The notes under the pieces: generated by a model
Seen by the model: the letters and a program-made list of their open reading frames with translations, nothing else
Told to the model about the DNA's origin: nothing
Database searches by the model: none
Program-made: the position numbers and the translations under genes
NCBI GenBank assembly: GCA_964016885.1
Contig: OZ024741.1
Location: forward strand, 273,296,001 to 273,360,000
Source of the DNA: Eledone cirrhosa
Lineage: Eukaryota
DNA: 64,000 nucleotides
Direction: 5' to 3'
Part shown: one piece after another, positions 3,188-63,603 of the stretch
Position numbering within the stretch: position 1 is the stretch's first letter
Layout: each line of letters begins with the position of its first letter

Positions 3188-3390
3188 AAACCACAGACCC
3201 TCCATCTCAACTCACCTTTTGAAAAGCAGAAGAACTGCGAAACCGGTAAAGGAACCAAATAAATATATATATTTTAAAAAAAAATAAGACTTCAGTTGCA
3301 TTTTCGATTTCATCCCTTTTTCTTTATACTTCCACTCGTGTAGGACACCTCGGTTATTTTTCATTTTGTAAAAAAAACCTCACTTTCTAA
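3188..3390 (+). mobile_element. PLE pseudo-LTR remnant in (TA)n
   Basis: Contains an HHR; homologous to 22198-22472. Confidence 0.75.
3215..3252 (+). ncRNA. Minimal type I hammerhead ribozyme, U3-A8 core variant
   Basis: cctt-TTGAAAA-gcag/aagaa/ctgc-GAAA-c/cg/g-TA-aagg; stems I and II pair; palindromic ACCGGT. Confidence 0.75.
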
Positions 3391-4011
3391 TATATATATA
3401 TATCTATATATATTTATATATATATATATATAACTAAGCTGCGTGTGTGTGTATATATATATATATATATATATATATATATACCTTTTTTGATTCTTAC
3501 ATGCTGAAATTATATTCTTTTCTTGTTTTTCTTATCTCTTTGAATTTAAGTTTACTGTTTCTATAAATGAAAGATAGTTGTATAGGATTAAATCTCTCTT
3601 ATTGCCATGTGTGCATGCCTGACTGGCTTGGCATCCTCAGGTTAGTCTGATTTCTTACCCCTCCCCTTTGTTTTTCAGGCCTGATTAGCCCTCTGTTGCT
3701 ATGAAGGAATTTAACTATGTACACAACATCCCAGAGACTAGAAAAACAACAAACTTTAGGATTTTTTGCTTAGATATTTTTGCTTTTTTGCCCTGACTGC
3801 ATGTCCATATATAGACTGTACCCCTTGATAAGTTTAGCTAGATTCTCACCATTCTAATACTGGTGGCTTAGTTTGGATCTAGCTCTCCTGACTCTTTTCA
3901 TATATATATATAGATATATATATACACACCAATGACCTCCACCCATCCCAATCACCACCCTCTCCTACCACCAGAAAAGATATAAATACCACCATATTAC
4001 TTGGACAGTTG

Positions 4012-4060
4012 GCTTCCTGATGATTTCTCTCGAATGAAACAGTTCTAGTCCTGTAGAAGC
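4012..4060 (+). ncRNA. Type I hammerhead ribozyme
   Basis: gcttc-CTGATGA-tttctctcgaat-GAAA-cag/ttctagtc/ctg-TA-gaagc; related copies at 12139-12180 and 29024-29112. Confidence 0.85.
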
Positions 4061-4139
4061 GTTTTCTATATATATATATATATATTATATATATATATAT
4101 ATTAGTTGGTAAACAACCTTATATATATTTATATATATA

Positions 4140-4771
4140 TAGAGATTTTATCCTCATCAGAGGACGTGACAGATGGACGGTTGTAAACACAAAAGCCTTC
4201 TCAGGTGAGGAATGTACCTCCCAACATAACTTAGTTGTCAGCGACCTCATTGTCAAAACTAGATGAACTTGGAAACAGAAGGCAACCTGGAGAAGAAAGA
4301 TCTGGAAGCTGAAAGACCCCTCAGCCACTAACAGATTTAAAGATATTTTACTCGACGCTTATGACAGTAAAGAAGAAAAGATAGACATTCAATGTAGAAG
4401 AGCACTGGGAGTACCTAAAAAATAACTTACTAAAGGCGACGGATGAGATCTGTGGTTGGAGTAAGACAACAGGGAGGAGGAGAGTGACTTGGTGGTCGAA
4501 CAATAAGGTAGATGAGGCAGTTAAGGCTAAGAGAGAGGCATGGAAAGAATGGGGGAAGCAGGGTACGTTACATAGAGACCAAGAGGGAAGCTAGGCGACA
4601 AGTATACTTAGCTAGAAGGGAAGCGGAGGATAGAAAATTCAAGCATGTCTTGCAATGTGAGGACCAGAAACAGGAGGTGTTTAAGAGTGCAAGACAGTGT
4701 GTCAGAGATAGTTGTGATGTCATTGGAGAGAAGTGTATCCAGAATGATAAAGGTGAGCTTGCCCTCACAAG
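4140..4771 (+). mobile_element. Decayed RTE LINE fragment (end of APE domain and linker), interrupted by hAT
   Basis: DFILIR..GEECTSQHNLVVSDL..TWW..EARRQVYLAR..DVIGEKCIQNDKGELAL. Confidence 0.75.
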
Positions 4772-5158
4772 CAGTGGCGTAACTAGCTTTTAAAGCCAGG
4801 GGGGGGGGGGGAATCCGATCTAAAGGGGGCCCACCAATTCCATACGCTCATTTCCATCAGCTGCAAGAAAATATGTTCATACGGGCGTCTAGAATAGATA
4901 ATTTATAATAGAGTAGAATACATCATAGATTACAGAGTTAGCATGTTCCGTGAAAACTGTATTAACTGCAAAGACGGTGGTCTATCTTCAGAAAAAAAAA
5001 AAACAATATCCAGTAAAACTAGTCTTGCAATCGATTATTCACAAACAAAAATTCGTATGTGCAACAAATCGTCCATCTAAAACTTTACTTTCACATTCGA
5101 GCCTATCACTTGTTCTACAGTTCTAATTTGCGATGTTTTACTTTAGAAAATGTTTCAA

Positions 5159-59903: not shown

Positions 59904-60280
59904 TGATATGTGGTGACAGACGAGTTTACAATTTTCAACTGTAATGATATGGGTAAATTTCGTACCTTTTATACATTTTATACAGAGAAAAGTGACTCCA
60001 GAATGCAAAGCCCTGTAAACTGTATTTCGACCAATCAGTGTGTAGTTTCACTGAATTACTACAGCTGATTGGTTTAAGCGTCACGGCTGGTTGAGCATGC
60101 TAACGACCAATAGTCATATCCAACATATCAATTGTTTTGCTTTTTGAAATGATGAAAATAGCATTTTCTATTAATCATCACCATCAACATCACTTTTATT
60201 ATTATTATTATTGTTGTTGTTGTTGTTGTTGTTAGTGGTCGTGGTCATAGTGGTAGTAGAAGTAATACCCCTAGGCGTTA

Positions 60281-63206
60281 TTATTGTTCATTTAGCTTGG
60301 GTTTGAATTTATCAATAAAATTATTTTCTTTGATTTTTCTCTTGATTTCACTTGGGCTGTGTAATTTGTAGAATGGGAATATTATAAATATTCCCTGACC
60401 ACATGTTGCCAGGTGGCCGCTTAGGGGTATCTGACGGACATTTGGGTCTCTGATTTGTTGACGGTGTACCCGTGCACGTTCCGATAGTGCATTTCCAGTT
60501 TGACCGACATATAGTTCTTCACAATTCGGGCATTTAATGCAGTAAATTAGATTTCTGCTTTTGCAGTTCATATTTGCATTTGGGAATATTTTTCAAGTTT
60601 TTGTTTTCATATATTGACCGGCGTGTATGGATTGACATGTGCCGCATCGATTATCATTGCATTTAGATACAGTGAATGATTGGTCTTTGTTGTTAAGGTC
60701 AAACTTTGCTTTTGTTAGCAATTGCTTCAAATTTTTTGGCTGTCTTTTACTAAGAGTCAAAGATCGATCTGTGATTAAGCCTTTTAATTCATTACTTTGA
60801 GCAATGATCGGTAGGTTTGCTTTGGCAGTGTTGAAGATATTCTGGTGACATGGGTTGTGTGTCATTATAAATGGTATGACCAGTTCTTGGTTTCTTCTTC
60901 CTTGGGTTGTTCTAAGTTGTTGTATAGGTATTTTTATAGCCCGCTGTATGCCATTTTCTATAAGTAGAGATGGGTATTTTTGTTTGAGCAAAAATTCTCT
61001 TAGTTCTGTTAGGCGTTTGTACCTGGTATTCGTATCTTCTACAATGGTACAAATTCTTCTGGCTAGGCAGTATGGGATGTTGCGTTTTGTATGAGGTGGA
61101 TGGCACGACTTAAAATTCAGATATTGATGGGTGTCTGTGTGTTTATAATATATATCCGTGGTAATGGTGGTGTCGTTTTTGATTATCATTATATCTAGGA
61201 ATGGTAATTTGGTCCTACTCATCTCTTTTGTGAATTGGAGAGATGGGTGTAGGTTATTCAGGAGGATATTGAACTCATCCAGAGTATCTAGAGATTCTGT
61301 CCAGATGGTGAAACAGTCGTCAAGGTATCTCTTCCAAGATTTTCAATGTACTTTCTAAAGTCAGTACTATATTTTTCCTCTATTTCTTGGTAGAGTTGTT
61401 GTTCTAAGTATCCCATTACAGAGTTCGCGTAAACGGGAGCAAACTTCGTTCCCATCGCTGTGCCTCTAATTTGGATGTAATTCTTTCCATTGAAGAAGAA
61501 AGTGTTGTTTTCCAGAATAAGTTTAACTGCGTCTAATATAAATGGCGCTGTGAATCTAATGGGAATCACTTCTCTATGTTTTTCCACCCAGTATTTAACC
61601 GCCTTTATTCCTAAATCATGTGTAATGTTGGTGTAAAGGCTTACCACATCAAAACTGAGTAGAAGTGAATTCGTTTCCGTGGTTTTAGGAAGATGGGACA
61701 GGAAGTCGATATCATCCCGGGTGAAATTGGTATGTGAATACATAGTGGTTTCAAAATAATGTCAACAAAATTGCTTAGACGGTGGGTGGGGCATGTTGGA
61801 CCAGCTATAATAGGTCTAAGTTTTAAGTCTTTTGGGTGTAATAATTTAATGTACTCACTGTTTTGTTCTCTTACTGCCAGTTGTATTTCTTTTGACTTGT
61901 GAACTTTCGGTAGGCCATACAGGTTGCTGGGTTTCGGCTCAAAATTGGTGATGTAGTCTCTTTCCTTATCGGTAAATGAGTTGTGGGATTTTGAAGCCAG
62001 GTTGTTGATCTTCTTCATGATGTTGTGGTCTATATTTGACGGTATTTCATGATAGAATGTTGTGTCTTTCAGTTGTTCCTCAACCAAATCCTTGTAGTAT
62101 TCAGTATCCATTATAACAACTGCACCCCCTTTATCTGCTTGTTTAATTATTATTGTTTTATCATTTTGTATACGTTTAAGTGCAGACATTTCTGATTTGT
62201 TAATGTTTGGCCTAACATTAGTATTATGTCTAAGAGGAAATTTAGACAGGATGTCAATGTATTGGTCGAGATAGATATTTCTTCCTTTTGCCGGAGTGAA
62301 ATTTGATTTATTCTTTACTAGTGATTCATCACTCTCATTATTTTTATCAGCGAAGAATTCTACAAGACGTAATTTTCGACAGAATTCTTGGGTATCCTCC
62401 TTCAGTTCTTGGTGGTTGACTGTTGGAGTCGGTGTGAATTTCAGTCCTTTTGACAGAATTTGCATTTCATCATTGTCAAGATCTCTTTTAGATAAATTAA
62501 TTATTTTATGATCTACGTGTACAGCTGTTTTGGGTATGTTTCCTCCTGGAGTTTTTCTTTTTCCGGTTTTTGTTGTCCTGACGTTAAAAAATGAATTTTT
62601 CTCTGTTCAGGATTTATATTCCTGTTGGTGTTCGCTTGATGAACTTTTGGTCGTGATATTATATTTGGTTTCGTTATGTATTTTGTCCTATTTTTGGTAT
62701 TCTGTATATTATTTTTCTTCCTGTTAGCATTATTTTTAACAATCTGGGAAAATGACCTAGGTTTGCTTTCAGGTTTAGATCGTTTTTTCGTCCAGTTTCT
62801 TGTGGGCAATCTCTGTTGAGATCTTGAGAGTGATCTGGTTATTCTACGTTTTGTTTCCACATTCCTTGTTGGTAGTCTCTGTTGAGATCTTGAGAATGAT
62901 CTCCTGGTTTTACTACTTCTCATGGTCTGGTCAAAGGAATACCTATCGTGTTTGTGCTTTTTGTTCATGTTGTGTGCGATAGGGTGTTTTTGTAGAAAAA
63001 GCGAAGAGTTATTACCGTAGTTCTTCTTTGATTCAAGGTAAGGTGAGTGTTTGTGTTGGCACGTGTTCTGGCGTATGTTGTGTTGATGAGTTTGTCCACT
63101 TTTAATGCTTTTTCTCAGGGTTCCAGAGTCTTTACCGTAATTTGCAGCATATTCATCGAGAAATAATTGTTTCTGCTGCCATACCTTTCTTGATTTGTTT
63201 TCTTCT
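60281..63206 (-). pseudogene. Frameshifted PLE polyprotein (basic N terminus, RT, GIY-YIG)
   Basis: [68 protein letters not shown]. Confidence 0.9.
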
Positions 63207-63243
63207 AGTTGAAAATTGCAAACTCGACTGTCACCACATATCA

Positions 63244-63282
63244 TGAACCTGAAGATTGCGAAAGCATGAAAGTACTTGTTCA
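63244..63282 (+). ncRNA. Minimal type I HHR (inverted pLTR copy)
   Basis: Same sequence as the HHR at 59865-59903, opposite orientation. Confidence 0.85.
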
Positions 63283-63558
63283 ATTAACACTTAGAATTTA
63301 ATATTCTATCATACTATTTCATTATAATACCATTATATATATTTTAAAGGATTGTAAATAAAACGAGTAAATCAGACAAAGTTGGAATTCCTCTTATTAA
63401 TATATATATATGTATATACATATATATATATATAAATATGTATGTATATATATATATATATGTATATACATATATATATATATATAAATATGTATGTATA
63501 TATATATGTATATGATAAAGAACACAAGAGCGTCTACAACATCAAACATTTTTAATTG

Positions 63559-63603
63559 GCTTACAATGTTTCTTCCTTACGTAACCGTAGGATTCTTCAA
63601 AGC
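63559..63603 (-). ncRNA. Minimal HHR (U3 variant), likely the 3' pLTR of an element extending past the window
   Basis: gct-TTGAAGA-atcctacg/gtta/cgtaaggaa-GAAA-cattg-TA-agc. Confidence 0.65.

Follow-up and report, generated by a model that had tools for sequence, protein, structure and literature searches.

What has placed so many hammerhead ribozymes (HHRs) in a stretch of the Eledone cirrhosa genome that is rich in degenerate TA repeats? The stretch examined here (assembly GCA_964016885.1, contig OZ024741.1, positions 273,296,001 to 273,360,000), hereafter the window, comprises 64,000 nt of a 3.0-Gb genome; positions are those of the window, with the strand as + or −. An earlier note, made from the sequence alone, described about 20 HHR motifs beside four open reading frames (ORFs) of Penelope-like elements (PLEs), and took the (TA)n microsatellite for a shared landing pad of a local community of autonomous PLEs and their ribozyme-bearing parasites. 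Our results point to a partly different relationship. The HHRs are probably the end modules, or pseudo-long terminal repeats (pLTRs), of several PLE families, together with two retrozyme families, lying against (TA)n and likely all written by PLE reverse transcriptase (RT)-endonucleases.

Hammerhead motifs and their coding parents

HHRs were sought with a descriptor comprising the core CUGANGA or its U3-A8 variant, GAAA, UH, a stem I of at least 4 bp and a stem II of up to 150 nt. Twelve complete type I HHRs, each with core, GAAA, UH and stems I and II, were found in the window (3219+, 4017+, 19469+, 26910+, 45099−, 45365−, 45580+, 55109+, 56471+, 57511+, 59898− and 63249+), as against a mean of 0.05 and a maximum of 1 in 300 island-wise dinucleotide shuffles. 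Eight further, damaged motifs were backed by homology to intact motifs from fetched genomic loci (185 motifs, grouped into 35 clusters), and four more (13870−, 39856+, 44661+ and 63585−) by blastn homologs read by eye. The resulting 24 motifs in 14 families bear out the earlier count, and the complete motifs alone lie far above the number in shuffled sequence. The note had also held that most islands between the arrays carry an HHR, which was barely true (20 of the 39 non-TA islands of at least 90 nt), and that more than ten unrelated families are present; the number stood, but not the complete lack of relationship, as family E has stems I and III in common with several others.

The descriptor was adjusted after inspection of the window, its first two versions having missed motifs in which the base of stem II has a mismatch or a bulge. 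Because it was tuned on the window, 80 samples from outside it, described below, provide the fairer test. Stem III and loop 3 formed a perfect palindrome in 7 of the 12 complete motifs of the window and in 71 of the 104 from the samples; families A, C and D differ. In family C stem III (19494–19500, +) is non-palindromic and would pair in a dimer only with tandem purine mismatches. The box CUGANGA by itself, lacking GAAA or stems, occurred at 34 sites in the window, where 21 were expected. Rfam identified no HHR in the window at its gathering threshold, and in E-value mode across 16500–40000 none among the best 150 of 392 matches, which were dominated by TA-driven microRNA matches.

The HHR-bearing features of the window are as follows; the terms Hydra-type and Neptune/Nematis-type are motif-based labels.

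3207–3260, +: family B HHR, U3-A8 core, complete, in a short pLTR copy; long copies of this pLTR come after an endonuclease (EN) end of Neptune/Nematis type
4014–4068, +: family A HHR, complete; no known parent
12130–12180, −: family A HHR whose core abuts TA directly, the 5′ strand of stem I being absent
13830–13880, −: HHR with the core start deleted; full core in homologs; no known parent
17365–19722, +: PLE1, 5′-truncated RT-GIY-YIG ORF of 632 aa with a CX4CxxC linker, followed by a pLTR that holds a family C HHR (19469) and meets (TA)n with the long 3′ end
22268–22321, −: family B HHR forming one arm of a fold-back insert, its stem I weak
24679–24771, +: HHR with broken stem I; homolog intact; no known parent
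26463–27190, +: retrozyme D, a non-coding tandem repeat with a 518-bp unit, here 1.4 units long, with its HHR at 26910 and a tail hairpin around 26682–26710
29038–29103: two partial family A HHRs, head to head
36108–36277: family M two-armed stub, both arms with the HHR 3′ half only
36407–40030, +: PLE2, 5′-truncated ORF of 754 aa with DKG and CX4CxxC; long 3′ region with damaged U3-A8 HHR (family K) at 39856
42596–44818, +: PLE3, 5′-truncated Hydra-type ORF of 520 aa with CxCX5C; family L HHR at 44661
45053–45111, −: family C HHR, complete, in a pLTR stub
45267–45766: family E HHRs (45365− and 45580+), arms of a Hydra-type pLTR
54904–55438: family F two-armed stub of a Hydra-type pLTR; one arm has the complete HHR 55109+ and its 116-nt stem II, the other (55099−) lacks stem I
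56009–56670, +: 3′ fragment of the PLE1 family, family C HHR at 56471
57191–57865, +: retrozyme G, one non-coding unit of about 655 bp; HHR at 57511, tail hairpin near 57210–57250
59693–63400, −: PLE4, ORF in five pieces (DKG, CX4CxxC, GIY-YIG); its 3′ end holds the family I HHR 59898−, and a short inverted arm the HHR 63249+
63545–63600, −: HHR with C3 changed; canonical core in homologs; no known parent

RT followed by a C-terminal GIY-YIG domain in one ORF was found, as were the further hallmarks of PLEs, namely an HHR in the pLTR, 5′ truncation, an inverted arm and an optional tail. RVT_1 was matched in PLE2 and PLE4 and GIY-YIG in PLE3 and PLE4, some of these matches lying below the Pfam cut-off; PLE1, with no Pfam match, was assigned by motifs and blastp. 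PLE2 and PLE4 were 41–54% identical, and PLE1 and PLE3 were 22–31% identical to the others, giving three lineages. The four RT-GIY-YIG ORFs of three lineages in the earlier description were therefore present, but none could be called autonomous: all four were 5′-truncated or broken and not one was complete.

Each of the four PLEs has an HHR in its 3′ region: family C in PLE1, I in PLE4, K in PLE2 and L in PLE3. The 3′ region of PLE2 recurs at another locus (L137), and the family L HHR of PLE3 has an 87-nt stem II region and a single damaging change. Parents of three further families were found outside the window. A PLE2-like (Neptune/Nematis-type) EN end lies about 1 kb upstream of a family B pLTR (L151), and families E and F precede ORFs of 748 aa (L322) and 759 aa (L321) that both carry DKT and CxCX5C; the tandem units measure 3,868 and 6,599 bp. 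CxCX5C also occurs in PLE3, which is truncated before DKT. The units of the E and F parents exceed the size general in the Hydra clade (<3 kb) and have RWR instead of RWK; together with PLE3 they are treated as putative Hydra-type elements and not as proven members. The Neptune/Nematis linker CX2-5CxxC before GIY-YIG was found as CX4CxxC in PLE1, PLE2 and PLE4, which, with the B parent, would belong to Neptune or Nematis, two clades not told apart here. Clade assignments rest on motifs. The U3-A8 core is used by families B and K, M being mixed; it has been reported in Schistosoma PLEs (PMC4209133).

Coding parents were thus traced for seven families (B, C, E, F, I, K and L), accounting for 13 window motifs. 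The parasites of the earlier note were largely not borne out, with 13 of 15 traced motifs being PLE pLTRs or truncated stubs, and D and G alone being retrozymes.

In each of nine families examined there were two fixed 3′ ends, 55–140 nt apart, downstream of the HHR and directly against (TA)n. For the PLE families these lay at about +190/+245 (C), about +149/+205 (I), +106/+171 (B), +196/+333 (F) and +99/+188 (E), and for the others at +44/+124 (M), about +41/+109 (A), +284/+355 (D) and +354/+418 (G). The arms of two-armed inserts ended at different 3′ ends in 5/6 pairs of family B and about 7/12 of family I (the rest unreadable, with internal TA). A tail hairpin of the form RCTC...GAGY, with 4-bp pairing, begins 7–10 nt past the first 3′ end. 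It was present in F (33/33), E (12/14), M (21/24), A (7/10), D (19/20) and G (4/7, two of nine rows having been dropped as short-end copies), with one base pair A-U in F, E, M and A and G-C in D and G. No copy of B (0/29), I (0/21) or C (0/18) had it, some of those examined being short-end copies. In four single copies having the hairpin the shuffle p was 0.002–0.018; the single G and A copies in that test were without it.

Starts of the short copies and a possible copying mechanism

The short copies, or stubs, span the ribozyme cut site and begin at points specific to each family. Among 30 unselected F loci, 20 ran on into the parent and 10 stopped 4–8 nt before the core. In 813 F copies the parental base at −8 was missing, which places the truncation exactly 7 nt ahead of the core; all 30 of those fetched were truncated there. 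Adjacent head-to-head pairs were picked from the first 100 listed places of each family. In F, 15/32 pairs lay at 8–18 nt core to core and the other 17 at ≥2,650 nt, with none between; in I, 12/23 lay at 83–104 nt, and in B, 7/25 at 78–83 nt. The arms of I and B begin about 42 nt before the core. Those of M begin inside loop II, 35/44 being without the core and 27 of these falling within a 9-nt span, a start explained by neither the cut site nor stem I. A G stood at the F junction in 24 of the first 100 copies, compared with 10/120 flank positions (8%; binomial p = 2 × 10−6). Of 329 copies, 5 begin at the cut site; as the HHR had served to select most of these loci, the informative set is the family C sample, taken by its 3′ end, in which 0/29 begin at the cut (1/30 did not align). 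At each stub boundary there is a pyrimidine-A step, which we take to resemble an initiator; words before the family C HHR of PLE1 (19360–19420, +) presumably resemble NRF1 and YY1 sites. Penelope itself has an internal initiator-downstream promoter element (Inr-DPE) promoter upstream of its ORF (PMC2377424).

These starts fit a mechanism in which the PLE endonuclease would nick both strands of a (TA)n array and RT would prime from both DNA ends at two internal RNA sites. On its own mRNA, RT would copy the uncut leader back to the transcription start and run off the capped 5′ end, leaving the HHR in or near the shortest copied piece; such copying would yield many short HHR stubs. Retrozymes D and G, which carry the tail hairpin of Hydra-type pLTRs, would be copied in trans by a Hydra-type RT. 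We tentatively propose that this is the most hammerhead-dense animal genome among the published counts compared, and that a Hydra-type RT recognises the tail hairpin, primes from both ends of cut (TA)n at the two flanking sites, follows capped, uncut RNA as far as the transcription start, and also copies those retrozymes that keep the hairpin. Were this so, the enzyme and the cis signal for the mobilisation of animal retrozymes would have been named. The entry of these retrozymes into DNA has been proposed, not demonstrated, as far as the available parts of PMC7229834 and 10.64898/2026.07.22.740005 go. Given young, near-identical retrozymes, candidate ORFs of Hydra type, a pair of mapped start sites and a candidate signal in the RNA, the assay of PMC11167929 would allow a direct in vitro test.

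Several observations weigh against this reading. Start sites, caps, circles and cleavage are all deduced from sequence. Most F stubs (76/100) have no extra G, and paired arms are not independent in the F junction statistics. The 5′ ends of family C are mostly scattered, 4/29 lying at −1 to −6 and 2 near −60. Both F and C stop inside stem I, where a structure-induced stop or fold-back of the complementary DNA (cDNA) is possible. Folding showed 7 of 8 motifs to be no more stable than their shuffles, family F being the one that was (z = −6.6). The tail hairpin has only 4 bp and was picked out by eye, not blind; a stricter pattern gave no match in retrozyme units of 311 and 467 bp, and a common hairpin may reflect descent. 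Finally, 9/24 window motifs (A, M and three single motifs) are without a traced parent, that of family A having been looked for among genomic loci and not found.

The main competing account of the stub starts retains the same enzymes and the same target, and attributes the fixed 5′ ends to RT stalling or cDNA fold-back at the ribozyme structure. We consider this less likely, yet well worth retaining. The stub start falls on the 5′ strand of stem I in F (at −7), in C (at −1 to −6) and in some copies of A, so a structural stop is possible for these three families, and self-priming has been proposed for the palindromic junctions of PLEs (PMC3846280). Stalling does not readily accommodate I and B, with their stop about 42 nt before the core, or M, with its stop inside loop II, nor would it predict the pyrimidine-A step at every boundary or the enrichment of the extra G in F. 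Copying to a transcription start is the account we prefer as the more likely.

Genome-wide distribution and the (TA)n target

The wider genome was represented by 80 evenly chosen 10-kb samples (60 from contigs C1–C3 and 20 from 16 other contigs; 799,228 bases). These held 104 motifs, or 1.30 per 10 kb (bootstrap 0.90–1.80): 85 in the first 60 samples, with 0–2 in each of 8 shuffles, and 19 in the next 20, with 0–2 in each of 10 shuffles. Extrapolation gives about 390,000 HHRs genome-wide (270,000–540,000), about one per 8 kb. The window, at 1.9 per 10 kb, lies within this range (resampling P of at least 12 in 64 kb = 0.19) and is an ordinary sample of the E. cirrhosa genome, not the special local community that had been suggested. 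Exact patterns, with a reversed control of 0, gave 5,579 copies of I, 11,454 of B (31-mer), 14,512 of C, 2,303 of F and 760 of E; by its 3′ end pattern family C numbered 24,528. The axolotl has 126,247 HHRs by a descriptor that differs from ours (PMC7229834). In the literature covered, supplements excepted, no report was found of HHR counts in this kind of genome or of a tail hairpin common to retrozymes and PLEs, and the text of PMC13282606 contains neither 'hammerhead' nor 'ribozyme'. PLE ends, at some 390,000 estimated motifs, would form a major repeat class missed by Rfam.

These figures bear on the proposal that most HHR islands are independent non-coding parasites of neighbouring autonomous PLEs. 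D and G are true non-coding tandem families, the five families without a traced parent could be parasites, and the TA content of the window is four times the genome mean. The proposal is nevertheless unlikely, given that HHR density is ordinary for the genome, the traced motifs are PLE ends in 13 of 15 cases, the window ORFs are truncated or broken, and every family tested occurs dispersed, with hundreds to thousands of copies.

TA-type sequence made up 26,354 of the 64,000 bases of the window (41%), compared with 9.5% in the genome samples. Among the 85 motifs of the first 60 samples, 44 lay within 200 nt of (TA)6, as against 20.8% of background positions. With tandem runs collapsed and scores of at least 9, (TA)6 was found within 400 nt downstream in 56/62 HHR copies, with a background of 21.4%. 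The 3′ end of family C against (TA)n recurred in sequencing-run contigs X2 and X7. By a different measure, the end of an HHR-less short interspersed nuclear element (SINE) lay within 20 nt of (TA)6 in 6/86 matches. One type of RTE fragment abutted (TA)6 in 5/12 matches, so the preference for TA is not exclusive to HHR elements. Insertion into (TA)n has been reported for Hydra PLEs (PMC8557442). The data support (TA)n as an insertion target shared by several PLE lineages and non-coding HHR repeats; the enrichment and the shared landing pad of the earlier note are both upheld.

It is also conceivable that the arrays are products, a telomerase-related RT adding TA repeats on insertion and so building its own landing sites. 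TA stands at both outer ends of nearly all inserts in a genome with 9.5% TA in the samples, and no empty site was seen among the loci examined. In 333 kb of matches to 17 reference repeats, however, 11 collinear interruptions included no HHR element breaking into a TA-free repeat, and the two that held TA were without an HHR. This small test lends weak support to a pre-existing TA target; targeting of (TA)n is also reported for Hydra PLEs, and we consider it improbable that the arrays are products.

Retrozymes D and G follow the same pattern of ends. Each unit holds one type I HHR, with five HHRs spaced 518 bp at one D locus (L040) and a spacing of about 655 bp in G, and the longest ORFs are 61 aa (D) and 65 aa (G). 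First-look candidates numbered 1,184 and 1,999 genome-wide, of which 40 each were scored, dispersed over many contigs. Both families have PLE-like paired 3′ ends about 220–350 nt from the cut sites, variable 5′ ends and some inverted arms. A PLE origin or mobilisation of non-LTR retrozymes has been proposed (PMC7229834; Li et al. 2026, 10.64898/2026.07.22.740005). Mobilisation of D and G by RTE or another long interspersed nuclear element (LINE), for which RTE LINEs in the window, the TA-abutting RTE fragment and the openness of PMC7229834 to LINEs might speak, or spread as satellites, is very unlikely in view of the match to PLE inserts in the paired fixed 3′ ends, in 5′ ends that vary, in inverted arms and in the Hydra-type tail hairpin, and of the dispersal of copies over many contigs. 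In one blind-chosen sample, an array of eleven 310-bp HHR units was observed (L091:281–3381, −).

The remaining features of the window are listed below.

5162–7258, −: hAT-like transposase remnant (DUF4371)
10140–17367, no strand: degenerate (TA)n array, the largest on the left side
25274–25855, 27752–28113 and 50325–50914: three copies of an HHR-less repeat of about 600 bp
32058–35688, +: RTE-type LINE in several pieces, the last ORF ending in three C2H2 zinc fingers
47822–56001, no strand: degenerate (TA)n array with inserts

The array at 47822–56001 has higher-order repeats of about 1.06–1.29 kb and 2.6–2.9 kb, and has therefore grown by block duplication. The 600-bp repeat was found at 23 loci elsewhere, with (TGTA)n flanks there.

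A number of candidates were set aside. The CUGANGA sites at 3640, 7919, 21260 and 30167 and in the RTE ORFs lack GAAA or stems. Two sites, 57879+ and 58373+, have a core and no stem II; they belong to a 494-bp partial tandem (57877–57960 and 58340–58395, +) in which GAAA, stem III, UH and a closed stem I precede the CUGAUGA box, a type II order, with no pairable stem II and five homologs, one with a paired change in stem I. The motifs 4160− and 16650− comprise a 3′ half only, with no homolog. A fold-back insert at 16567–16830 has an HHR 3′ half with palindromic stem III and a damaged core, and no homolog in 1.3 Mb. The segment 26058–26344, also left out of the 24, is a two-armed insert in TA with no HHR detected and homologs in three loci. 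At 41837–41981 lies the 3′ tail of a tandem HHR family of about 700 bp (L047 and L089; stem II about 95 nt), the HHR itself missing.

Comparison with known systems

The occurrence of HHRs in PLE pLTRs (PMC4209133) and the targeting of (TA)n (PMC8557442) are known already, and the mobilisation of retrozymes by PLEs has been proposed. Less known are the PLE-type paired 3′ ends with the Hydra-type tail hairpin in D and G, the fixed stub starts away from the cut site, and the scale.

The elements described here resemble Hydra-clade PLEs (Craig et al. 2021, PMC8557442) in their C-terminal GIY-YIG, CxCX5C, DKT and canonical HHR, and in (TA)n insertion, tandem and inverted structure and an optional tail. 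They differ in unit length (3.9 and 6.6 kb, compared with generally <3 kb), in tails of 90–140 nt instead of 30–40 bp, and in a stem II of up to 116 nt. Neither a fixed 5′ stub boundary nor the tail hairpin was found described for that clade in the available part of the paper.

With published minimal HHRs of PLEs the motifs have in common a bulge at the base of stem II, an occurrence mostly as single dispersed motifs from truncated PLEs and, in many but not all cases, a short palindromic stem III; the U3-A8 core variant is likewise known from Schistosoma, with about 1,300 cases. The numbers are unlike: about 390,000 here, extrapolated with our own descriptor, as against 2,000–9,000 per genome, with 11,454 exact copies in the single U3-A8 family B.

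Metazoan non-LTR retrozymes (Cervera and de la Pena 2020, PMC7229834; Li et al. 2026) are likewise non-coding, AT-rich tandem units with one type I HHR each and co-existing PLEs. Their units are of 150–450 bp, compared with 518 and about 655 bp here, and in the available parts of PMC7229834 and 10.64898/2026.07.22.740005 paired 3′ ends at (TA)n and a PLE-clade tail hairpin were not found described.

The closest biochemical counterpart to the proposed mechanism is the Poseidon PLE of anole, studied in vitro (Frangieh et al. 2024, PMC11167929). In that system cleavage and extension affect both strands of an AT-rich target; RT begins synthesis at two positions within the RNA, which define the tail, and uncut RNA serves as the template. 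Poseidon belongs to another clade, and no retrozyme template was used; its start sites were found not to differ between strands, whereas the arms of the inserts described here usually use different sites.

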